From the NCBI GenBank assembly GCA_022574315.1, contig JACZSH010000003.1, forward strand, positions 1 through 32,113: a stretch of 32,113 nt of DNA, read 5' to 3'. The notes beneath the pieces are model-generated. The model did no database searches. It saw nothing but the letters and a program-made list of their open reading frames with translations, and was not told where the DNA came from. How positions within the stretch are numbered: position 1 is the first letter of the stretch; every line of letters begins with the position of its first letter. Of the stretch, positions 2,812 through 22,194 are shown piece after piece. This DNA is from Chloroflexota bacterium (GTDB lineage: Bacteria > Chloroflexota > Dehalococcoidia > Dehalococcoidales > RBG-16-60-22). The position numbers and the translations under genes are program-made.

Positions 2812-3156
2812 TTACTGTATAGCCAGCTTGGCGCTGACAAGACGATTAACGCTGATATTAGCTTCTGCTGCCTGTATTGCCAGACGTCTATGCACGTCTG
2901 GCGGTATGCGAACTGTAAATGTGCCTGAATACTGCCTTGTAGCGAGTGGTTCAGGAACGGGTTCATTATTCGCTTGCATATCTGGAATGACTTCTGCCAC
3001 AAGGTTGAGAATACCCTGCATAGCTGTATACTGGGTATCAGCTAGCCAACTTAGACTGGGAAACTCTGCACACAATCCTACATATTCTTTATCTTCTTCC
3101 GACCAGGTAACCCGATAAGTATAGCGGTCATTCTTTATTGCTAATTTAGTTACCAT
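2812..3156 (-). CDS. hicB: HicB-family antitoxin
   Basis: YTYRVTWSEED..YVGLCAEFPSLSWLA N-terminal domain plus the RHH-like YSGTFTVRIPPDVHRRLA...SVNRLV. Start set at ATG 3156, overlapping the hicA end. Confidence 0.88.
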   Translation of the reverse strand: MVTKLAIKNDRYTYRVTWSEEDKEYVGLCAEFPSLSWLADTQYTAMQGILNLVAEVIPDMQANNEPVPEPLATRQYSGTFTVRIPPDVHRRLAIQAAEANISVNRLVSAKLAIQ

Positions 3157-3397
3157 TTTGCACCTCCAGTTTTTCAATGGCTTTTAACACTTGTCTAACT
3201 TGGTATGCTTTTGCCTTGCCATTATCGTCCTGTATATTAATTCTAGGGTCACCAATCCAGGGAGTTTTATATATAATATGGCTTCCTTTTTGACGACCTT
3301 CCCCAAAGTAATAATCACAGATTTTACAGAGGTCAGCGAAACTAACATTTTTCGGATTCTTTCCTAGTTGCTTAACTGCGCTATCTGTGGAATCCAT
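3146..3397 (-). CDS. hicA: HicA-family toxin
   Basis: 83 aa with NPKNVSFADL, RQKGSH and GKAKAYQVRQV; directly upstream of hicB; low GC. Confidence 0.85.
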   Translation of the reverse strand: MDSTDSAVKQLGKNPKNVSFADLCKICDYYFGEGRQKGSHIIYKTPWIGDPRINIQDDNGKAKAYQVRQVLKAIEKLEVQNGN

Positions 3398-12520: not shown

Positions 12521-12610
12521 GAAAATATCCTTTTCAGCTCATCATCGCTGACATTCCGGGACACTCCCGGGACGTCGTAATAGTCATGTTTGGTCACCAT
12601 GAAAATATCC
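12456..12610. repeat. Tandem direct duplication (80-bp period) of the dnaJ start region
   Basis: 12456-12530 and 12536-12610 match over 75 bp with 3 mismatches. Confidence 0.95.
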
Positions 12611-12713
12611 CTTTTTCATAACCCATCCCCTGGGAAACGGCGCTACCCACCACCCTGATACGGAGACCGGTGGCACCGGAAACATTCCAGAAGGCAATAA
12701 TACCTCTAGTATG

Positions 12714-12742
12714 ATACTAGCAAGACAGGTGTCTACTGTCAA
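12714..12742 (-). promoter_or_regulatory. Putative dnaJ promoter
   Basis: TTGACA (12742-12737), 17-bp spacer, TAGTAT (12719-12714). The -10 sits in the palindrome CTAGTATGATACTAG. Confidence 0.6.
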
Positions 12743-12812
12743 GGCACAAAAAGGTCCACCGTGGCCGTCCGGACGCCCCGAAAATATTGGCCAAAAAGGT
12801 GACAGAATGCTA

Positions 12813-12841
12813 TTGACGAAATAGAACATATGTGCTAATTT
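12813..12841 (+). promoter_or_regulatory. Promoter of the virion module with an overlapping LexA-type (SOS) box
   Basis: TTGACG (12813-12818), 17-bp spacer, -10 TAATTT (12836-12841) with an extended TG. AGAACATATGTGCT (12823-12836) is one mismatch from AGAAC-N4-GTTCT. Confidence 0.65.
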
Positions 12842-12869
12842 GGCATTGTCAGTTACTTTGAGGTGGGCC

Positions 12870-13196
12870 ATGGAGCCAGCGTGGTACGAATTGGACGAAT
12901 GTGATGCCGAGCTCCGGAGCGAGGAAAATCAGGACCCGAACCGGCTCGATTTGCCGCCGGAATTCTGCCAGTACCGGGACGAAGGCTGTGACCTTGCCCG
13001 TTCCTGTCTCAATTGCCCATTCCCGCACTGTGTTTATGAGTTGCCCGGTGGCCGGCAGCGCTGGTTAAAAAAGAGGCGTGATTCGGAAATAAACCGGCTC
13101 TTCGCCGGTGAAGGTAAAGAGGTTAATGAGCTGGCCAGGATGTACGGTATCAGCCAGAGGACAGTACAGCGGGCGTTAACCAACGCCGCTAAATAG
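12870..13196 (+). CDS. Cys-rich domain plus C-terminal HTH (Mor-like) putative transcriptional regulator
   Basis: C-x6-C-x5-C-x2-C-x4-C followed by RRDSEINRLF..G..VNELARMYGISQRTVQRAL. Start set at ATG 12870 after GAGGTG. Confidence 0.65.
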   Translation: MEPAWYELDECDAELRSEENQDPNRLDLPPEFCQYRDEGCDLARSCLNCPFPHCVYELPGGRQRWLKKRRDSEINRLFAGEGKEVNELARMYGISQRTVQRALTNAAK

Positions 13197-13244: not shown

Positions 13245-14630
13245 ATGAATGATTCGATTTCGGCACAGCTGGCACGGCGTGACCTGACCAGAATCAAGGG
13301 CTACCGGGATTTTCTTGACTTTTATCATGGCCAGCAGTGGGCAGGCCGGGCAAGATGGGGGGAAAGGCATCTGGTTTTTAACTACGCCCGGGTCTTCATT
13401 GACAAGATTACCTCGTATCTCATGTCCGGGGTTAGTTTTGCGGTGGATGCCTCGACCGATTCTGACCAAGCCAGAGAAACGGCGCGGCGGGCAGAATCAG
13501 CCCTTCACCGCGTTTATGATGAAAACAACCTGGAACTGCTGGACCTGGAGACGGAAATCGATTGCGCCGTACTGGGTGACGCCTGTTACAAGATTATCTG
13601 GGATACCGCTGAGAAAAAGGTGAGGGTAACCGCGCCTGATGTCCAGGGTATCTATGCCTGGTGGTCGGGTGATGACACTTCCCGCATATGGCGGGTCGCT
13701 TCCCGGTACAGCCTCTCTGCCGAGGAGACCGAATTCCTTTACCGGGTGAAACCCAGGGGCAAGACAGCTGTCATCGTTGAGCTGTGGACGGCCAGCGACT
13801 TTGAACTCTATCTGGACAACGTCCTGGTAGAGAAAAAGCCCAATCCTTACGGTTTTATTCCCTTTATCATCTATCCCAACCTGCGCGAGCCGAAGAAATT
13901 CTGGGGAATATCCGATTTGCCCGCCATAATGGAATCACAGCGGGAGTTGAATCGGGCGATGAGCCAGCTTTCCCGTATCCTGGAGTTGTCCGGTAATCCC
14001 ATTGCCGTCCTGGAAAACGTGGAAGAATCCGAAGATATTGCTATCCGGCCGGGCGCCGTCTGGAATATCCCCGAGGACGCCAAAGCCTACCTGCTCGACC
14101 TGCTGCAGGGCGGCGGCATCAACCTTCATATCAGTTATATCGACTTGCTTTACCGCACTTTGCACGACATCTCGGAGTCACCCCGCTCCGCTTTCGGCGG
14201 CACGGAGAGAGACCTCTCCGGGGTGGCCCTCCAGATTGAGCTTTACCCCCTGTTGCAGAAGGTGAGGCGAAAGCGGATTATCCGTACCGCCGCTTACAAA
14301 CGGCGTAACGAGATGATTCTCCGCCTCCTGGAAAAATATCAGGGGGAAAATTTTGGGGACAACCGACTGCGTATCGTCTGGGCTCCGGTGCTGCCTCACG
14401 ATGTCACCAGTCAGGTCAATAACGAACAGACGCTGGTCCAGGCCGGTATCCATTCCCGGCGCCGGGCAATGGACGAGATTGGTGTCCAGGATCCCGAGGC
14501 TGAGTTTAAAAGATGGCTTGAGGAGAGAGAGACCATTCTCCGTATGAATAAGGAACTTAACGTCCGGTCCACCCGCAGCGAGGTGAGAGGGAGAGCTTCA
14601 TCGTCTCCGGTGGCCGGCGTTGAGGAATAA
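13245..14630 (+). CDS. Phage portal protein (SPP1 Gp6-like)
   Basis: 461 aa; DFYHGQQW, FNYARVFIDK, NPYGFIPF, GISDL and SGVAL motifs typical of SPP1-type portals; first gene of the head module. Confidence 0.85.
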   Translation: MNDSISAQLARRDLTRIKGYRDFLDFYHGQQWAGRARWGERHLVFNYARVFIDKITSYLMSGVSFAVDASTDSDQARETARRAESALHRVYDENNLELLDLETEIDCAVLGDACYKIIWDTAEKKVRVTAPDVQGIYAWWSGDDTSRIWRVASRYSLSAEETEFLYRVKPRGKTAVIVELWTASDFELYLDNVLVEKKPNPYGFIPFIIYPNLREPKKFWGISDLPAIMESQRELNRAMSQLSRILELSGNPIAVLENVEESEDIAIRPGAVWNIPEDAKAYLLDLLQGGGINLHISYIDLLYRTLHDISESPRSAFGGTERDLSGVALQIELYPLLQKVRRKRIIRTAAYKRRNEMILRLLEKYQGENFGDNRLRIVWAPVLPHDVTSQVNNEQTLVQAGIHSRRRAMDEIGVQDPEAEFKRWLEERETILRMNKELNVRSTRSEVRGRASSSPVAGVEE

Positions 14631-14647: not shown

Positions 14648-15136
14648 ATGGCGGATAACGAACAGGCATTGACCGATGAGTTGACGGCAGTCCGGGACAG
14701 GGTGGCTGAACTGGAACAGGAGCGGGAAATCCTCACCCGGGAGCTTGAGTCCGGGGCCCTCCGCATTACCGGGCTTGAGCAGACGGTGGCCGACCGGGAT
14801 GGTGAACTGGTCATACTCAAGGAAACGGTGGTGACGTCGGACCGGAAATTAACCGGGGTCAGCAGTTCCCTGGCTCAGGCGGTGGAGAGCTATCGGGAGC
14901 AGGTGGCGGTGGCTAACCCGGACGTGCCGGTCGAACTGATTGCCGGCGATACTATCGGCGCCGTCAACGAATCTCTGGAAAACGCCCGCACCCTGGTGGA
15001 TAAGGTGAAACAGGGCATTGAAGCCGAGGCATCCCGGGTGAAAGTGCCCGCCGGCGCTCCGCAACGCGCGCCGCTCGACCTGTCGGGGCTGTCTCCGCGG
15101 GAAAAAATACAATATGCGATTGGAGGTAACAGGTAA
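14648..15136 (+). CDS. Putative capsid scaffolding protein
   Basis: Acidic coiled coil between portal and capsid, with a short C-terminal helix LSPREKIQYAI. Confidence 0.7.
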   Translation: MADNEQALTDELTAVRDRVAELEQEREILTRELESGALRITGLEQTVADRDGELVILKETVVTSDRKLTGVSSSLAQAVESYREQVAVANPDVPVELIAGDTIGAVNESLENARTLVDKVKQGIEAEASRVKVPAGAPQRAPLDLSGLSPREKIQYAIGGNR

Positions 15137-16057
15137 ATGGCTTTAACACTGGCGGAAGCAAACAAACTGTCAAATGACATCCTGCTGCAGGGTGTGGTGG
15201 AGACCATCATCAAGGACTCTCCCATCCTGCAGCGGCTGCCCTTTATCGAGATTGTCGGTAACGGGCTGACCTATAACCAGGAAAAGACCCTGCCCAGCAT
15301 CGATTTCTACGATGTCGGTGATACCTGGGTCGAATCAACCCCTACTTTTGAGCAGAAAACGGCTAATCTGAAGATTATGGGCGGCGATGCGGATGTGGAT
15401 AACTTTCTGAAGTCCACCCGGAGCAACGTCCAGGACCTGGAAGCCGCCGTCGTCGAACTGAAGGCAAAGGCGGTCAAAGACAAGTTCGAAGAGGTCTTTA
15501 TCTACGGTGACGCCACGCCCAATCCCAAGGAGTTCGACGGCTTGAGAAAACTGATTGATACCACCTCGGCCGGTAACCAGGTAATCGCCATGGGGGCAAC
15601 CGGTGCCACGCTCACTCTGGTTAAGCTGGATGAGCTCATTGACGCCGTCAAGGGTGGTAAGCCCGATATGCTGCTCATGAGCCGGCGCACCCGCCGCAAG
15701 ATTAATGCCCTGGTCAGGGCCAGCGGCGGCATGGTGGACAGCGACCGGGACCAGTGGGGCAACTTTGTCCAGTTATGGGACGGTGTTCCCATCGGTGTTA
15801 ACGACTGGATACTGGATACCCACGCCCTCAGCGGCAGCCTGGAGACCGGGACTACCGGCGGCACCTGCTCCATAATCTATGCCATCCAGACCGGAGAGTG
15901 GGCGCTTTGTGGGTTGACCAGTCCCGGGCACCTGACGGTGGAGCCAATCGGCTCTATGGAAAGTAAAGATGCCACCCGCACCAGGGTCAAGTGGTACGTG
16001 TCCCTGGCGCTCTTCAGCGCGGTTAAGGCGGCCGCTTTAATCGGCGTTCAGGACTAA
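15137..16057 (+). CDS. Major capsid protein (HK97-like fold)
   Basis: 306 aa; MALTLAEA, GVVETII..SPILQRLPF, GGDADVDNF and EFDGLRKL patterns of phage capsid proteins; GGAGGT RBS. Confidence 0.85.
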   Translation: MALTLAEANKLSNDILLQGVVETIIKDSPILQRLPFIEIVGNGLTYNQEKTLPSIDFYDVGDTWVESTPTFEQKTANLKIMGGDADVDNFLKSTRSNVQDLEAAVVELKAKAVKDKFEEVFIYGDATPNPKEFDGLRKLIDTTSAGNQVIAMGATGATLTLVKLDELIDAVKGGKPDMLLMSRRTRRKINALVRASGGMVDSDRDQWGNFVQLWDGVPIGVNDWILDTHALSGSLETGTTGGTCSIIYAIQTGEWALCGLTSPGHLTVEPIGSMESKDATRTRVKWYVSLALFSAVKAAALIGVQD

Positions 16058-16080: not shown

Positions 16081-16482
16081 ATGGCTTTTTCAGATCCGGG
16101 AAAAGGAAGAATTATCGAGCAGGGGGAAGGACTGGTCAGGGTTACCCTGGCCGAGGCCTGCAAAGCCGGTGACATTCTCGGTTACAGCTCCGGGTGGAAG
16201 CGGGCGCTGGCCACTACCGGCACGGCTGTTCAGGGTCGGCTGGTAGCCGGCGAGGCTGGCGCCAGTGGTGATGTCATCACCGCTTACCGCCGTGCCGTGA
16301 TCAGCGGTTACTCGGGAGGCACTGCCGGCAACGCCGTCTATGTCGCCGAGGGTACGGATAACGGCCAGGTTACGGAGACCCAGCCCACCACTACCGGCGA
16401 CTGCGATACGCTCATCGGCTATATGGCGTCGGCGACCGTGGCCGCTCTGGAGCCCGGCTCGAGGACTGACTCGACCGCTTAG
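16081..16482 (+). CDS. Putative capsid decoration/cement protein
   Basis: Small Gly/Ala/Thr-rich beta protein directly after the capsid gene; strong AAGGAGG RBS. Confidence 0.55.
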   Translation: MAFSDPGKGRIIEQGEGLVRVTLAEACKAGDILGYSSGWKRALATTGTAVQGRLVAGEAGASGDVITAYRRAVISGYSGGTAGNAVYVAEGTDNGQVTETQPTTTGDCDTLIGYMASATVAALEPGSRTDSTA

Positions 16483-16494
16483 TATTTCGAAAAA

Positions 16495-16521
16495 ACGGGG
16501 GAGGGGAACCCCCTCCCCCGT
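16495..16521. terminator. Perfect 12-bp GC-rich hairpin inside the virion operon
   Basis: ACGGGGGAGGGG-AAC-CCCCTCCCCCGT; a T-tract follows only on the minus strand. Confidence 0.55.
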
Positions 16522-16536
16522 ATCTGGAGGAAGAAA

Positions 16537-16878
16537 ATGACCGAGATTTACGTAACCCAGCCGGGAACGCACCGGACCGGCGTGACGGCGGTAGATTCCG
16601 CCGACCCGTCAGATACCAGCGGCGCGGTTGACACCAAAGGTTACCAAGAGTGCCGGTTTGACATAACTGTTTCCGGCACCGATTTTACCAGCCTTGAAGT
16701 CCAGGCCCTGTTCTGGAACTCGCGACAGGAAAAATGGATGGGCGGTGGTAAAAGGACGTTGACCTCGACCGGGCAACATGCCCTGGTGGTCGATTCAAGA
16801 GGGGCGATTATATTCCTGAAGGTAAACGCTTTCGTGGGGACGAGCTTCTCCCTGTCAGCGGATTATGCCTTGAGTTAG
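16537..16878 (+). CDS. Hypothetical virion-associated beta-rich protein
   Basis: 113 aa; GGAGG RBS; inside the structural operon. Confidence 0.6.
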   Translation: MTEIYVTQPGTHRTGVTAVDSADPSDTSGAVDTKGYQECRFDITVSGTDFTSLEVQALFWNSRQEKWMGGGKRTLTSTGQHALVVDSRGAIIFLKVNAFVGTSFSLSADYALS

Positions 16879-16889
16879 GAGGTAATACC

Positions 16890-17507
16890 ATGTTGAAACT
16901 GGCGGGAGAAGTGATTGAAGGACAGCTCGCCGACCATCTGGCTGAGCTTGACGCCCATACGCGTAATGCGGAAGAGTTTATTAAAGTAAATCAGTACGAG
17001 CTGGGCGGTTACCACAGTACTTTTTCAACGACTGCGGTGGCTGCGGATAGAATACACGCTATTCCTTTCCACGTTAACCGGAAAAGAACCTACCAGTATG
17101 CCGCCATTTATGTAACCGTGGCCGGTAGTGCCGGCAAGAAAGCCAGGTTGGGGATATACGCCGATGACGGTACGATTCTGCCGGGCGCGCTCATCGAGGA
17201 CTGGGGGGAAGTCGCTATCGACTCAACGGGGTTAAAAGCAATCGATATAACCGATAGACAGCTTGATAAAGGGCTTTACTGGGTGGTAATGCACACTGAA
17301 GATGCCTTTACCTTGCGCATTCGGACCGCCGCTTCCTTCAGCCCTCTGGGTATCCGGTCTACGGGTGGTGCCGCTTTGGGTGGCGTCGAAGGCGGGTATT
17401 TTAAGGATACTGCCTATGCGGTATTACCTGACCCGCTGACGGGCCTGGCGGCTTTAAGCTCGTTGCCGTTCATAAATATAGCCCTGATGGTAAAAAGTAA
17501 TGATTAG
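16890..17507 (+). CDS. Putative head-fibre/spike or receptor-binding protein
   Basis: Short helical stalk followed by a beta domain with ARLGIYADDG..PGALI, a pattern I associate with phage fibre proteins; GGAGGT RBS; lower GC than neighbours. Confidence 0.5.
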   Translation: MLKLAGEVIEGQLADHLAELDAHTRNAEEFIKVNQYELGGYHSTFSTTAVAADRIHAIPFHVNRKRTYQYAAIYVTVAGSAGKKARLGIYADDGTILPGALIEDWGEVAIDSTGLKAIDITDRQLDKGLYWVVMHTEDAFTLRIRTAASFSPLGIRSTGGAALGGVEGGYFKDTAYAVLPDPLTGLAALSSLPFINIALMVKSND

Positions 17508-17518
17508 GAGGCTACCCT

Positions 17519-17713
17519 ATGCCAGTAATAAGATATGCCCAAATATTCAAAGACGGCCAGCTAATCGACAGCCAACCTTACGAGGTGTCTGACGAGGAAC
17601 TGGCGCTGGAGAATGCCGATCAGGTAATCAAACGACTTTCCGCAAAAGCGGATAACGAGATGACCACCCCTGAAATGGCACAGTTCTTGAAAGCGCTGGC
17701 GCGGGCAAGATAA
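17519..17713 (+). CDS. Small hypothetical protein (possible fibre partner or chaperone)
   Basis: 64 aa; GGAGG RBS; follows the fibre-like gene. Confidence 0.5.
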   Translation: MPVIRYAQIFKDGQLIDSQPYEVSDEELALENADQVIKRLSAKADNEMTTPEMAQFLKALARAR

Positions 17714-17729
17714 AGACGAGGAGGTAACG

Positions 17730-18362
17730 ATGAACCTGACTGATATGAGGGCCATAGTCCGGCGTGACCTTCATGATGAAGACGCCGGCAACTACCGCTG
17801 GACGGATAATGAGATGGACAGGCATATCGCCCACGCCGTAAAGGGCTTCTCCGAATACCTGCCCTGGGAGCAGAAAACCACTATCGCCACCACCTCCGGC
17901 TCCCGGGAGATTGATATCTCCGCGGTAACAGGCAGGGTAATGGTCGAGGCGGCCGAGTATCCGGTGGATAATTTCCCCCGGCGCTACCAGCGGTTCTCCT
18001 TATGGGGTGACACCCTGAACCTGCTTGGGGACGAGATACCGGACGGCTCCAACGCTTATATCTACTACGGCAAACTGCATACCCTTGACGGCGCCACTTC
18101 CACTATCCCCGCCCGGCATGAGGACCTGATTGCCGCCGCCGCCGCCGGTTATGCCGCTATCGAGTGGGCGGTCTACGCCGTCAACCGGGTCAACGTCGGT
18201 GGCAGCGTCACCCCGGAGATGTTTTTAAGCTGGGGCAGGGAGAAGCTGGCCTATTTCCGGCAGGAGATGCAGCGACTCGGCCGGAGACACCGGGTCAGGG
18301 TCCGCTCCCTCTATAAACCTTACTACCCGGTCGTGTCTGAATCAACCGATTACGGTCCCTGA
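17730..18362 (+). CDS. Putative head-tail adaptor/connector protein
   Basis: MNLTDMRAIVRRDLHD....RWTDNEMDRHI N-terminal helices, a beta insert and IPARHEDLI..AA, resembling phage adaptor proteins. Confidence 0.65.
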   Translation: MNLTDMRAIVRRDLHDEDAGNYRWTDNEMDRHIAHAVKGFSEYLPWEQKTTIATTSGSREIDISAVTGRVMVEAAEYPVDNFPRRYQRFSLWGDTLNLLGDEIPDGSNAYIYYGKLHTLDGATSTIPARHEDLIAAAAAGYAAIEWAVYAVNRVNVGGSVTPEMFLSWGREKLAYFRQEMQRLGRRHRVRVRSLYKPYYPVVSESTDYGP

Positions 18363-18551: not shown

Positions 18552-18860
18552 ATGACCATAGAAAAAAGATTATCCAAGGAAGCCTTCGCTCTGGTGGGCA
18601 ACCCCGAAGACACCACCACCTGGCATTTACCCCACCACAAAAAGAATATCCCGGGCGCCGTTAAAGGCAAAATCGACCTGGAAAAGACGGTCGACTGGCA
18701 CCTGATGGCAATGGCGGTCGGTGAGCTTTCTCTCGGCGTCAATCGCCGGCGGAAAATCGAAGCCGACCCGGCGCAAATCCTGGTCGCCGCGGCTCACCTG
18801 GCCTCCCATTACCGTCAGGCCGGACACCCGCTCCCCGATGTACTGGCGGCTCTGGTATAG
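18552..18860 (+). CDS. Hypothetical protein with WHLPHH and HLASHY motifs (phage head-associated domain-like)
   Basis: 102 aa; GAGGT RBS; motif pattern recalled from phage head-module proteins, not verified. Confidence 0.55.
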   Translation: MTIEKRLSKEAFALVGNPEDTTTWHLPHHKKNIPGAVKGKIDLEKTVDWHLMAMAVGELSLGVNRRRKIEADPAQILVAAAHLASHYRQAGHPLPDVLAALV

Positions 18861-18936
18861 ACGGCGCTGTCGGGCACCCGTCTCCTGACTTCCTTACCTG
18901 GTGAAGGAATCGGAGAGAACCGTCAAAGGAGTAACT

Positions 18937-19227
18937 ATGCTGGAAAAATTATATCAAAAGCTGTGGACGAGGCTGGGTGGCCGACCCTGGACCTATATCC
19001 TGCGGGATACCTGGCATAAGCTTGAGGGACTCTGGATTATCGGCCTTGTCGCCGTCGGCGCCCTGCTCGGACACTGGCTCTGGGAGCTGGTATTCTGGTT
19101 CCTCCTCGTCTTTGCCCTGGGCTATATCGCCGGTCACCTTTTCTGGGGGACCCGGTATATCCCTTACCAGCCGGGCGATGCTGATACCGGGGCCAGGCAG
19201 GCTCTGGGAAAAGGAGTGGTGAAGTAA
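18937..19227 (+). CDS. Small two-TM membrane protein (holin-like)
   Basis: ATG 18937 after AAGGAG; basic amphipathic N-terminus, two TM helices and a polar C-tail; TAATG coupling to the next gene. Confidence 0.5.
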   Translation: MLEKLYQKLWTRLGGRPWTYILRDTWHKLEGLWIIGLVAVGALLGHWLWELVFWFLLVFALGYIAGHLFWGTRYIPYQPGDADTGARQALGKGVVK

Positions 19228-21233
19228 TGCGAAACTTAACCTCAACTTTGCTCACTGCCCAGAAACAGCCGTCGGCGCTGCCTTTTCTTAAAATAGAGGC
19301 GAGCAATAAGATTGCCGGCGTGGTCCGCTACGACTGGACACGGCTTTACACCGGCGCCGAGGACGACTCTTTCCACGGTATGGCCATGCCCGGCGACGGC
19401 TCCATGGTCAGGGTCAGGACAACCCCGCCCGCCGATTCCCGGAAGCTCTACCGCCAGCGAGTTGTTGACCCCGGCCCCGCCAGTGATTTTTCCCAGTGGA
19501 CTTATACCAATCAGTATAATGCCGCCGTAGTTGCCTGTGCCGCTCTGGACGCTGAAGTCTCCATCTTCTGGATAGACAGCGCCACCCGGAAAATTCAGCG
19601 CATCGTCAGCACTGACTACGGAGCTACCTGGGGCAGCCCGGAAACGGTCGATTATTCCCCCTCCACTTCCATTTTTGGCCTGACCGCGGCTTATAAGCCC
19701 AATGGTGACCTGGCTATCTTCTTTGCTGACCAGGCTAACCTCTATGTAAAAAAGCACCTCTCCGGGCAGTGGCAATCAAAGTCAGCCTGGGACAAGACCA
19801 CCGGCAACCTGTCCGGTGTCACCGTGGTCTATGACGCCGATTGGAACCTGCTGGTCACCGGGCAAGACACGTCGGGTAATTTCAAGTTGTGGAGCCTGGT
19901 TTACGGTGATGGCGGCGATGTCGCCGCCGGCAGCTGGTCGGCTTTGCCGGAGCTTGCCTCGGCTCCGTCCGATGGCGAATTTGAGTACTGCCGGCCTTTC
20001 CTGGCTAAACCTGACGTTTATCGCGGTTGCTTTGTCGAAAAGTTCACCGGCACTGACGCCTATGACCGCCCTTTCTGGTCGCACTCCGTTCTCGGGGCCG
20101 GCTTCGTGGCTAACCTGTGGCGGGAACCGGTGCCCTTTAATCTCTCCTCGGCGTACGGTCTGGCTATCGCTCACTACGGCAATTACAGCTGGCTGTCCAG
20201 TCCGGCCGGGGTCTGGCGGGCCGTTCTTACCGTGCAGTCCCTTGACCTGACCGCGGATGTATTGGCGGCCAGGCAGGAGACGGAAGAGACGTTGGGAAAA
20301 CTGACCGTGGAACTGAACAATGACGAAGGCCAGTACGCTTCTCCGGGACAGGGGAGCTTGTCTGTCCTCGATACCGGTTGTCAGCTTGATTTCAGTCCCG
20401 GTTACCGTACTGTTGTCGGCGACGAAGTAAGCGCCGGCCTCACCTTCAGCCTTGAAGCCGGCGAGCATACCAGCTCCGGCGGCAGTGCCCGCCTTATTCT
20501 TCACGCCCGCGATGGTTGGGGCGCCATCGCCGACTGGAAAGCCAGGCACCAGTTCCGCTGGAATAAAGACTCCGACCAGGCGAGCGTGAAGGATATCCTT
20601 GCCTTTGTCCTGGCCAGGCTGGGCTTACAGTTGACCGTCAAATCCCAGTCGTCGGTCATTACCGATTATTATCCTGATTTCACCTTCGGGCCGGGTATCA
20701 CCGGAGAAACGGTCATTCGAAAACTCCTCTCTTTCGTCCCGGATGTCCTCTTTATCGAGGGTAATCAAGCCTGCCTGGTCAATCCTCTATCGTCGGATAG
20801 CTCGGTCTACAGCTATGGCGCCGGGCATCAGGTTCTGGAAGGCAGGTATCGGTGGGGAGCCTGGGGGATTAACCGGGTCCAGGTGGCAGGTTATGACACC
20901 GGCGGCGATGAGGTTATCATCGCCGACAGTTTTGCCTGGGACGAGATAGACAAACTGTATGACCGGTTGCGGCAGATTGAAGACTTGAATATCGGTACCG
21001 TGGCCGAGGCACAGCAGAGAGGTGCCGCTCACCTGAGAGGGGCGGAGATAGCCTCGGTCGGTGGCCATATTTTGGTTCCGGTCAACTGCGGCCAGCAGAT
21101 GTATGACGTAATTGATATTACGGATAGCCGTGCCGGACTTGGTGCCGAGAAAAAACGGGTGGTCGGATTGGTTACGGTTTACCGTCCCCGCCGCGGTGAA
21201 TACCGGCAGTGGCTGCGGCTGGGGGCAGTCTAG
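19227..21233 (+). CDS. Large tail-tip-like protein: N-terminal beta-propeller (Asp-box) plus C-terminal baseplate-hub-like region
   Basis: 668 aa; Asp-box STDYGATW; the C-terminal half has a hub-like pattern (LTVELNN..G, SVKDIL..VL, PVNCGQQMYDVIDITD). The fold is inferred. Confidence 0.55.
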   Translation: MRNLTSTLLTAQKQPSALPFLKIEASNKIAGVVRYDWTRLYTGAEDDSFHGMAMPGDGSMVRVRTTPPADSRKLYRQRVVDPGPASDFSQWTYTNQYNAAVVACAALDAEVSIFWIDSATRKIQRIVSTDYGATWGSPETVDYSPSTSIFGLTAAYKPNGDLAIFFADQANLYVKKHLSGQWQSKSAWDKTTGNLSGVTVVYDADWNLLVTGQDTSGNFKLWSLVYGDGGDVAAGSWSALPELASAPSDGEFEYCRPFLAKPDVYRGCFVEKFTGTDAYDRPFWSHSVLGAGFVANLWREPVPFNLSSAYGLAIAHYGNYSWLSSPAGVWRAVLTVQSLDLTADVLAARQETEETLGKLTVELNNDEGQYASPGQGSLSVLDTGCQLDFSPGYRTVVGDEVSAGLTFSLEAGEHTSSGGSARLILHARDGWGAIADWKARHQFRWNKDSDQASVKDILAFVLARLGLQLTVKSQSSVITDYYPDFTFGPGITGETVIRKLLSFVPDVLFIEGNQACLVNPLSSDSSVYSYGAGHQVLEGRYRWGAWGINRVQVAGYDTGGDEVIIADSFAWDEIDKLYDRLRQIEDLNIGTVAEAQQRGAAHLRGAEIASVGGHILVPVNCGQQMYDVIDITDSRAGLGAEKKRVVGLVTVYRPRRGEYRQWLRLGAV

Positions 21234-21314
21234 AGGGTTGTCTCCCTTTGCGTCTTTATAAGCAGAGTTTCCTCTGAGAAGTGTTCTGAGCGGGCGGATT
21301 TCCCGGAGGCCGGT

Positions 21315-21515
21315 GGAGGGAGTTTTAGAGGGACGCCGTCCCTCTAACATAGCTATTTCCCTTTTCCCTTACTAAGGTCTTGCCTCAAATGTCATTCTGA
21401 GGAACGAAGTGACGAAGAATCTGTGGGTGGGGCTGGGGGTTCAAAGATAGTCCCCACCATTTCCCCTCTCACCTTGCCAAAAGGAAGGGGATACCGGGGA
21501 TGGGGTTAATAAGAT
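21315..21515 (+). repeat. REP-like repeat cluster with a nested second element type
   Basis: Hairpin TTAGAGGGACGCCGTCCCTCTAA (21325-21347); GTCATTCTGAGGAACGAAGTGACGAAGAATCT (21391-21422); TTCCCCTCTCACCTTGCCAAAAGGAAGGGGATACCGGGGATGGGGTT (21461-21507). Confidence 0.75.
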
Positions 21516-21534
21516 ATCAGGGAGTGTAAAGAAA

Positions 21535-21747
21535 ATGAGACTGCGAAAAGCGATTTTAAGGAGTTTCAATTCCGGAAATTATACCGCTACCATTCAGATT
21601 GCCGGCAGCTATAAAGTATATCTGGAAGATATTTCCGTGGCGCGGAACCTGCCTGCCGCCGAAATGACCACCGGTAGAAAAGCGGCGGTTGTCTTTTTTG
21701 ATGACTATAGTCCCAAAGAGGCGGTGGTCATCGCTGTCTATACGTAG
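21535..21747 (+). CDS. Small beta-rich protein, possible OB-fold spike component
   Basis: 70 aa; GGGAG RBS; strand pattern (YTATIQI..G, V.VARNL, GRKAAVVFFD, AVVIAVY) reminiscent of gpV/gp5 OB domains. Confidence 0.5.
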   Translation: MRLRKAILRSFNSGNYTATIQIAGSYKVYLEDISVARNLPAAEMTTGRKAAVVFFDDYSPKEAVVIAVYT

Positions 21748-21798: not shown

Positions 21799-22194
21799 TT
21801 AGTCGTGCTCTCGTGCCATGCCTCGGGCGATGCTCTTTAGCATGGTCAGGATGCCGAGTGTCGCGCGCTGCACCTCTACCGACTCTTCGGCTAACATCTT
21901 GGCCACAAACGGGTCCAGGTGCCGTCCGCTGTAACTTGAGCTTCTTTCTTCGGCAACGCCTGAACTATGCGGAGACAGGAAGCCGGCCAGCGTAAAAAGC
22001 TCGTCTTCGTCAAAACCCAGCGGTTTAGCGATGCGGCGAAGAATATGGGCCGAGGGGAAACGTTCGGCCCGCTCGATACGACCCAGGTGTGACGACGATA
22101 CCCCTGACGTAGACGAAAGCTCTTGCAGTGTCAGTGGTATCGAGATTCTCTGCTGCTTGAGTATTCTACCCAGGTTATGATTTTCCCTTGTCAT
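21799..22194 (-). CDS. XRE-family HTH transcriptional regulator
   Basis: LGRILKQQR...LTLQELS..SGVSSSHLGRIERAERFPSAHILRRIA; GGGAG RBS. Confidence 0.9.
   Translation of the reverse strand: MTRENHNLGRILKQQRISIPLTLQELSSTSGVSSSHLGRIERAERFPSAHILRRIAKPLGFDEDELFTLAGFLSPHSSGVAEERSSSYSGRHLDPFVAKMLAEESVEVQRATLGILTMLKSIARGMAREHD

Follow-up and report, generated by a model that had tools for sequence, protein, structure and literature searches.

A conserved LexA-type SOS box in the predicted promoter of a virion gene cluster of Dehalococcoidales

Introduction

The palindrome GAAC-N4-GTTC (Cheo/DinR box) is the Gram-positive-type SOS box of Firmicutes, Actinobacteria, and Dehalococcoides. It is already known that LexA boxes can precede phage genes, and two described systems are of particular relevance here. 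In GIL01, a temperate tectivirus of Bacillus thuringiensis, host LexA acts at the promoter P1 and keeps the phage in lysogeny together with the phage corepressor gp7 (PMC4551915, PMC6182141). In the gene transfer agent RcGTA, the role of LexA is indirect: it represses cckA and is needed for production, as stated in a paper that cites Kuchinski et al. 2016 (PMC6363796).

We analyzed a stretch of 32,113 nucleotides (the window), which is contig C147 of the MAG G000 (1.39 Mb in 155 contigs, 82.7% complete, 55.6% G+C). It contains a cluster of virion genes preceded by a promoter with a LexA-type box. While the boxes of GIL01 are located downstream of the transcription start, the box described here lies between the –35 and the –10 region. 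In full-text searches without supplements, none of the papers listed connected Dehalococcoidia to virion genes under LexA control or to gene transfer agents.

Results

The box overlaps the core elements of a predicted promoter

Read directly from the sequence, the promoter of the cluster consists of a –35 hexamer TTGACG (12813–12818), a 17-nt spacer (12819–12835), and a –10 hexamer TAATTT (12836–12841), all on the plus strand. The spacer is occupied by AGAACATATGTGCT at 12823–12836, the final T of which is at the same time the first T of the –10 hexamer. Seven of its eight core bases agree with GAAC-N4-GTTC, and the single mismatch results in GTGC. The first gene starts with an ATG at 12870, 28 nt past the –10 region, and has a ribosome-binding site (GAGGTG) at 12860–12865. 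An earlier reading of this DNA from the sequence alone (the sequence-only reading) had described a box with one mismatch in the spacer of a TTGACG-17-TAATTT promoter, touching the –10 region just ahead of the first module gene, and the coordinates confirm both the position and the mismatch. Counted from the predicted transcription start, the predicted operator covers about –25 to –12, and it overlaps the core promoter elements; promoter and start site are predictions only, and the promoter is conserved (see below). If up to one mismatch is allowed, AGAACANNTGTTCT has one match in the window compared to 0.05 expected, and at least one match occurred in 5 of 100 shuffled sequences.

The hexamer TAATTT agrees with TATAAT at only three of six positions, which is why the promoter is missing from the list of a simple consensus scan. 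T1, A2, and T6 are present, and a TG is located one base upstream. We nevertheless kept the promoter call because of its conservation in orthologues: these three bases of the hexamer, which are the same in 93 of 93 orthologous promoters, and the upstream TG are invariant or nearly so. By sequence reading, the TG is part of TGTG (12831–12834), a TRTG-type extended –10 (–16) element provided by the right half of the box. Further upstream, GACAGAA (12801–12807, plus strand) represents the local copy of a conserved GACAAAA element, 22 nt away from the box.

On the minus strand, TTGACA-17-TAGTAT at 12714–12742 resembles a divergent promoter. It points towards dnaJ, shows 10 of 12 consensus matches and a TG before the –10 region, and would leave dnaJ with a leader of about 190 nt (12521–12713). 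TGTCAAG recurs in relatives upstream of the module promoter, at variable distance. We also considered control of dnaJ by the box and rejected it, since 303 nt separate the box from the start of dnaJ and some 80 nt from the divergent promoter.

The box matches the LexA motif of the clade

The genome encodes a canonical LexA with the domains LexA_DNA_bind and Peptidase_S24 (C77:632-1288), and its gene carries AGAACAACCGTTCT directly after a TTGACA-17-TATTAT promoter. RecA is encoded on contig C154 (E 7e-136). Both a LexA with an S24 autoprotease domain and RecA are therefore available in this genome, while LexA cleavage itself is inferred. In relatives, an exact GAAC-N4-GTTC box is present in 29 of 30 lexA promoters of one set and in 77 of 80 of another, with ATAGAACAnnTGTTCK as the consensus of these operators. 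The lexA promoters of L015, which belongs to the same genus, and of L218 contain a GCAC/GTGC half-site variant, as found in the candidate box.

Scoring the site with a LexA matrix was one of the checks proposed by the sequence-only reading, and the site stands up to it. Our matrix was derived from the lexA operators of 28 other genomes; the genome's own operator was excluded, as was the L015 variant, since its inclusion favored the GTGC form. With this matrix, the candidate ranks between second and fourth among all positions of the 1.39-Mb genome in eight of eight parameter settings. The own lexA operator comes first in all eight and is the only site consistently above the candidate (17.7 bits compared to 14.7 bits). 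The competing sites of the 14-mer scans lie inside long ORFs, as judged by crude ORF calls and verified for C87:775 and C120:9233; in one 18-mer setting, a site listed as intergenic (C5:22831) scores above the candidate. The match between the box and the clade LexA motif exceeds chance.

In relatives, perfect boxes also precede IMS-family (imuB-like) genes and a DUF6504 gene that is followed by a gene with PHP and DNA_pol3_alpha domains (DnaE2-like). In contrast to the candidate with its 14.7 bits, the best upstream scores of recA and uvrA in G000 are only –2.2 and –3.3 bits, so that both genes lack a box. The SOS regulon is thus atypical and the function of LexA in this clade inferred, which counts against control by LexA. 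So does the lack of a LexA match in three MAGs that carry the portal gene of the cluster (G006, G020, and G040, which are 87, 81, and 90% complete).

The box is conserved upstream of orthologous clusters

Conservation in orthologous promoters was the second check put forward by the sequence-only reading. In one set, all 30 loci have the box, about 320–560 nt ahead of the portal gene; in a second set, 77 of 80 do. The three loci without it end at contig borders and offer only 188–421 nt of upstream sequence; every orthologous cluster that could be assessed is preceded by the box. The two sets overlap and together contain 93 distinct complete promoters. Related genomes are not independent samples, and all counts given here should be read accordingly.

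Across the 93 promoters, TTGAC is found without exception, 17–19 nt from the –10 region. Positions 9–14 of the box reach 1.85 bits per column and the GACAAAA element 1.20, compared to 0.24 further upstream and 0.32 downstream of the –10 region. The dS values between the compared genomes range from 0.2 to 3.2 or are saturated. At such distances, unconstrained DNA is randomized, which indicates that the box is held by selection.

Such selection might in principle act on the promoter alone, without any repressor, if the 14-mer were conserved only for its spacer and its extended –10 element. Indeed, TRTGn and the first –10 base, a T, fall within the right half of the box. But the spacer of σ70 promoters is not sequence-specific, and the left half (AGAACA, positions 1–6), which is located in the spacer, nevertheless shows 1.94 bits per column, whereas the five columns just upstream of it, between the –35 region and the box, show 0.73. 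Moreover, the site forms a palindrome that corresponds to the lexA operator consensus, and the 14-mer recurs in another promoter, the –35 region of which is different. An explanation by promoter needs only is hardly credible in the face of these observations.

The mismatch at position 12 is conserved

The sole mismatch of the box to the LexA consensus, G12834, corresponds to position 12 of the 14-mer. Among the 93 promoters, 81 have a G at this position, seven an A, five a T, and none a C. In lexA operators, by comparison, the equivalent position is a T in 106 of 110 cases and a G in only 2. The consensus of the extended –10 element is TRTG, and the position-12 G together with the preceding T provides its TG: TGTGcTAATTT fits TRTGn. 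Promoters lacking the G have better –10 hexamers (4.3 compared to 3.6 matches; permutation p 5e-5, not corrected for kinship). As far as can be told from such comparisons, the conserved G is the TG of an extended –10 element. It probably also lowers the affinity for LexA, for which no affinity data exist. Operator and extended –10 element would then represent a compact case of one base under two constraints.

Since the deviation is conserved, LexA may bind only weakly, or the site may be recognized by a different protein. We therefore considered a dedicated repressor other than LexA, for which the half-sites AGAACA and AGCACA would be merely SOS-like. The difference at position 12, which extends to most of the terS promoters described below, shows that the two classes of sites deviate systematically from each other, and a possible candidate adjoins the cluster: an XRE-type HTH gene (21799–22194, minus strand; HTH_31, HTH_3) is preceded by a promoter that matches the consensus at 12 of 12 positions (22284–22256). 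A homologue of this gene is present in only 10 of 80 loci, however, and no XRE gene was found near the cluster in the complete region of the genome G039, whereas the box is universal. The remaining features of the site also point to LexA. The preferences in the flanks and the center (ATAGAACA, T at position 9) are the same as in lexA operators, and the G at position 12 is fully accounted for by the extended –10 TG. The perfect form, GTTC, occurs in five module promoters, and the imperfect half is on the other side in the module promoter of L106 and in the class-level relative G421; a mismatch that can reside in either half fits a symmetric LexA dimer. A dedicated repressor, be it the XRE protein or an unidentified factor, is therefore unlikely in our view, though it cannot be dismissed.

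The promoter precedes a cluster of virion genes

The first gene (12870–13196, plus strand) encodes a putative late activator of 108 amino acids, which is rich in Cys at its N-terminus and has a Mor/C-like HTH domain at its C-terminus. Its match to Pfam Mor (E 4e-4, 20.8 bits) remains below the cut-off of 24.9 bits, and phrog_836 (“late transcriptional activator”) is matched with E 7.4e-7. All 80 loci contain this gene. Ahead of the HTH domain, its product has a conserved Cys cluster, C-x6-C-x5-C-x2-C-x4-C, which is also found in the homologues of G039 and G027; it could bind metal or sense redox.

All further genes up to position 21747 have the same orientation. The portal gene (13245–14630) is identified by SPP1_portal (E 3.3e-26) and phrog_64 (E 1.8e-42), and the major capsid gene (15137–16057) by phrog_212 (E 2.1e-70) as well as Phage_capsid, GP7, and SU10_MCP; for the capsid protein, no phage relative with more than 40% identity was found. 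Between these two lies a scaffold-like gene (14648–15136), which matches no family and was assigned by its position and its coiled-coil-like sequence. Downstream, four small genes (16081–17713) precede a head-tail adaptor gene (17730–18362; SU10_adaptor, E 8e-8). Only the third of these small genes (16890–17507) matches PHROGs, namely phrog_25864 (E 5e-10) and, weakly, phrog_21562 (“tail protein,” E 1.8e-5); the other three (16081–16482, 16537–16878, and 17519–17713) gave no PHROGs match. The distal part (18552–21747) comprises genes for proteins of 102, 108, 668 (19227–21233), and 70 amino acids (21535–21747), for which searches of Pfam and PHROGs returned nothing. Of 80 loci, many of them truncated by contig ends, 44 contain the 668-aa gene and 40 the 70-aa gene.

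The cluster is flanked by host genes, with DnaJ on the left and YqeY, followed by radical SAM and NYN genes, on the right. In G039, G027, and G045, the left neighbor is not dnaJ but a gene for a secreted protein of 590–812 amino acids with Ig/TIG domains. No tRNA was found in the window. A hairpin-like element of about 33 nt (ATTCT...AGAAT) is located at 21389–21423, in the gap before the 70-aa gene; it matches many metagenome contigs with unrelated flanks and looks like a dispersed short repeat. At the other end of the window (2812–3397, minus strand), an 83-aa ORF without a Pfam match overlaps a gene for an antitoxin of the HicB family (E 1.2e-14), and the two may form a toxin-antitoxin pair.

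A second boxed promoter precedes the terminase genes

An identical-type box is located upstream of terS-terL in G039, G027, G045, and G025. All of another 13 usable loci have it too, ten of them with scores of at least 14.7 bits. One locus (L123) was left out of this count because of a coordinate artefact; relatives with a boxed terS promoter include L177 and L178. In G000, AGAACATAAGTGCT occupies C66:2985-2998 on the minus strand and is followed by terS (2766–2455) and terL (988–2). About 1.4 kb separate these two genes in G000, where an opposite-strand ORF of 122 amino acids lies in the gap, whereas they overlap in G039. A small conserved ORF (MRLL.LAVE...) is located between the box and terS.

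In G039, which is 100% complete, AGAACNNNNGTDCT occurs only at the lexA operator, the module promoter, and the terS promoter. The last of these sites is found 4.7 kb upstream and is followed by terS (phrog_1889, E 6.9e-9) and by a putative terL encoding 459 amino acids, with a weak match to phrog_5909 (E 1e-4). Neither of the putative TerS and TerL proteins of G039 has a sequence match in Pfam or PDB, and because of the weak PHROGs match the TerL label rests partly on position and size.

In G027, a third identical box, followed by a –10 region TATTAT, is present at C2:1428734-1428747 (L280). No ORF of at least 60 amino acids starts within about 700 nt downstream, and this box might control a small gene or RNA.

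The terS promoters consist of the box and an extended –10 element without a TTGAC –35 region. They share with the module promoters the GACAAAA element, which is located 22–23 nt upstream of the box and centered near –45. The Mor-like protein encoded by the first gene might bind there, or the element could be UP-like; its function as a binding site is a guess. One could accordingly imagine that LexA is only a minor modulator and that the real switch is the Mor-like activator or some other signal acting at GACAAAA, in which case DNA damage alone would be insufficient. The fixed distance of the element in both promoters and the Mor-like HTH domain of the first gene product are compatible with this idea, and gene transfer agents are known for layered control, with LexA acting indirectly in RcGTA (PMC6363796). 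Against it, the gene for the activator is located downstream of a promoter with a LexA box, so that LexA would still gate the cascade. The –35 region of the module promoter is good, with TTGAC in all 93 cases, and an activator should not be needed there. We regard a merely modulating LexA as improbable.

The cluster is maintained within the order

Of 61 relatives, 44 carry the portal gene, in most cases as a single copy, and it also occurs in 182 stretches of a collection of species-representative genomes. For the first gene, portal, and capsid, dN/dS amounts to 0.04–0.22 in 20 of 24 comparisons, the other four being saturated. Judged from these comparisons, and without a test of tree congruence, the cluster is inherited vertically under purifying selection. 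Portal, capsid, adaptor, and terS/terL are all present, the flanks of the cluster are host genes, and several genes of the cluster have no assigned family. In the regions examined, we found no replication or integration genes, and the terminase and head genes occupy separate chromosomal loci.

The sequence-only reading had taken control by LexA as a sign of domestication. LexA control by itself does not justify this conclusion, as GIL01 provides a counterexample (PMC4551915). Domestication is supported on other grounds: the single copy in 44 of 61 relatives, the low dN/dS, the host flanks, and the separate terminase locus.

In a wider sample, the portal gene was detected in 46 of 401 genomes of the phylum, of which 20 upstream regions were examined. 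Beyond the order, the box is present at one order-level locus and recognizable at 3 of 10 class-level loci, while the other seven class-level relatives have no box of at least 9 bits within 1 kb upstream of the portal gene, which counts against the LexA reading. Among four phylum-level relatives, one has a perfect box, 170 nt ahead of its portal gene. An in-frame stop interrupts the portal gene in three genomes of one genus, and their box is degenerate (AGAACAAATGAGCG), a joint decay that fits the LexA reading; in two congeners without portal stops, the box is retained with one or two changes. A stop or truncation of the portal gene was noted in six complete or near-complete genomes of family f10 (G127, G333, G115, G208, G045, and G154), three of which have a degenerate box, and the cluster seems to be decaying in this family.

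Discussion

The box matches the genome's own LexA site, sits within a promoter, and is conserved throughout the order, from which it follows that DNA damage probably switches particle production on. That host LexA directly represses the module was the central claim of the sequence-only reading; it is supported by the genome-wide rank of the site, its conservation, and the presence of lexA and recA, while binding, repression, and damage induction are inferred. In the absence of binding or expression data, we assign a probability of about 0.75 to direct repression of the particle operon by host LexA through this box.

Under such direct repression, a LexA dimer would occupy the box in the undamaged cell and, by overlapping the extended –10 element, block RNA polymerase. 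Upon DNA damage, activated RecA would induce self-cleavage of LexA, and the operon would be transcribed: the σ70-type promoter would drive the gene for the Mor-like regulator and then those for portal, scaffold, capsid, adaptor, and tail-like proteins. The terS promoter, which shares the box and the extended –10 element but lacks a –35 region, probably also needs the Mor-like product at GACAAAA. Its activation would establish a LexA-gated feed-forward cascade, in which the activator step is as much an inference as the production of particles.

The same reading had also assumed that no CI-type switch exists. The arrangement resembles that of GIL01 in this respect. Because of the XRE-type HTH gene that adjoins the cluster, with homologues in 10 of 80 loci, the absence of another switch remains unproven.

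More tentatively, and with less than even odds in our own estimate, one can envisage an order-wide GTA-like particle system of the streamlined Dehalococcoidales with both operons wired to the SOS response. LexA would control lexA, an error-prone polymerase cassette, and the particle genes, but not recA and uvrA. Damage would lead to DNA packaging and release, as a population-level form of repair or gene exchange, and the operator would be fused to the extended –10 element such that one base serves the polymerase and tunes the affinity. What sets this system apart is an order-wide domesticated particle cluster in reduced genomes, with a conserved SOS operator in front of both operons. Its hosts are uncultured and organohalide-respiring bacteria, a group with almost no genetic tools. 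If the prediction holds, mitomycin C or UV would be a simple, testable trigger for particle production, a directly SOS-repressed system would be added to the known gene-transfer-agent-like elements, and an SOS regulon would have retained virion genes while dropping recA and uvrA.

The locus shares with GIL01 that phage-type genes without a CI-like repressor are held silent by host LexA and that an imperfect box is part of the control, both of which are predictions here. GIL01 is an autonomously replicating linear prophage, whereas the present genes are chromosomal, vertically inherited, and distributed over two loci. With gene transfer agents of the RcGTA type they have in common a small domesticated head-tail cluster that is conserved order-wide, evolves under purifying selection, and is spread over separate loci, as well as a dedicated activator, which is putative here. 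Unlike in RcGTA, each of the two structural promoters itself contains a LexA box, from which repression is predicted; that the present system packages host DNA has not been shown. As for Mor and C of phage Mu, a small HTH protein is encoded first, and its putative target, the terS promoter, combines a –10 region with a weak or absent –35 region and an upstream element near –45. The extra Cys-rich N-terminus and the Pfam Mor score below the cut-off distinguish the protein from Mor and C.

With the Cheo/DinR SOS system, finally, the locus has in common the palindrome with its AT-rich center, the position in the core promoter, a LexA with an S24 domain, and the occurrence of the motif before lexA and error-prone polymerase genes of the clade. 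It differs from this system in that recA and uvrA have no box, that the best targets after lexA are the two virion-cluster operons, and that the module box has a conserved one-base deviation which doubles as an extended –10 element.
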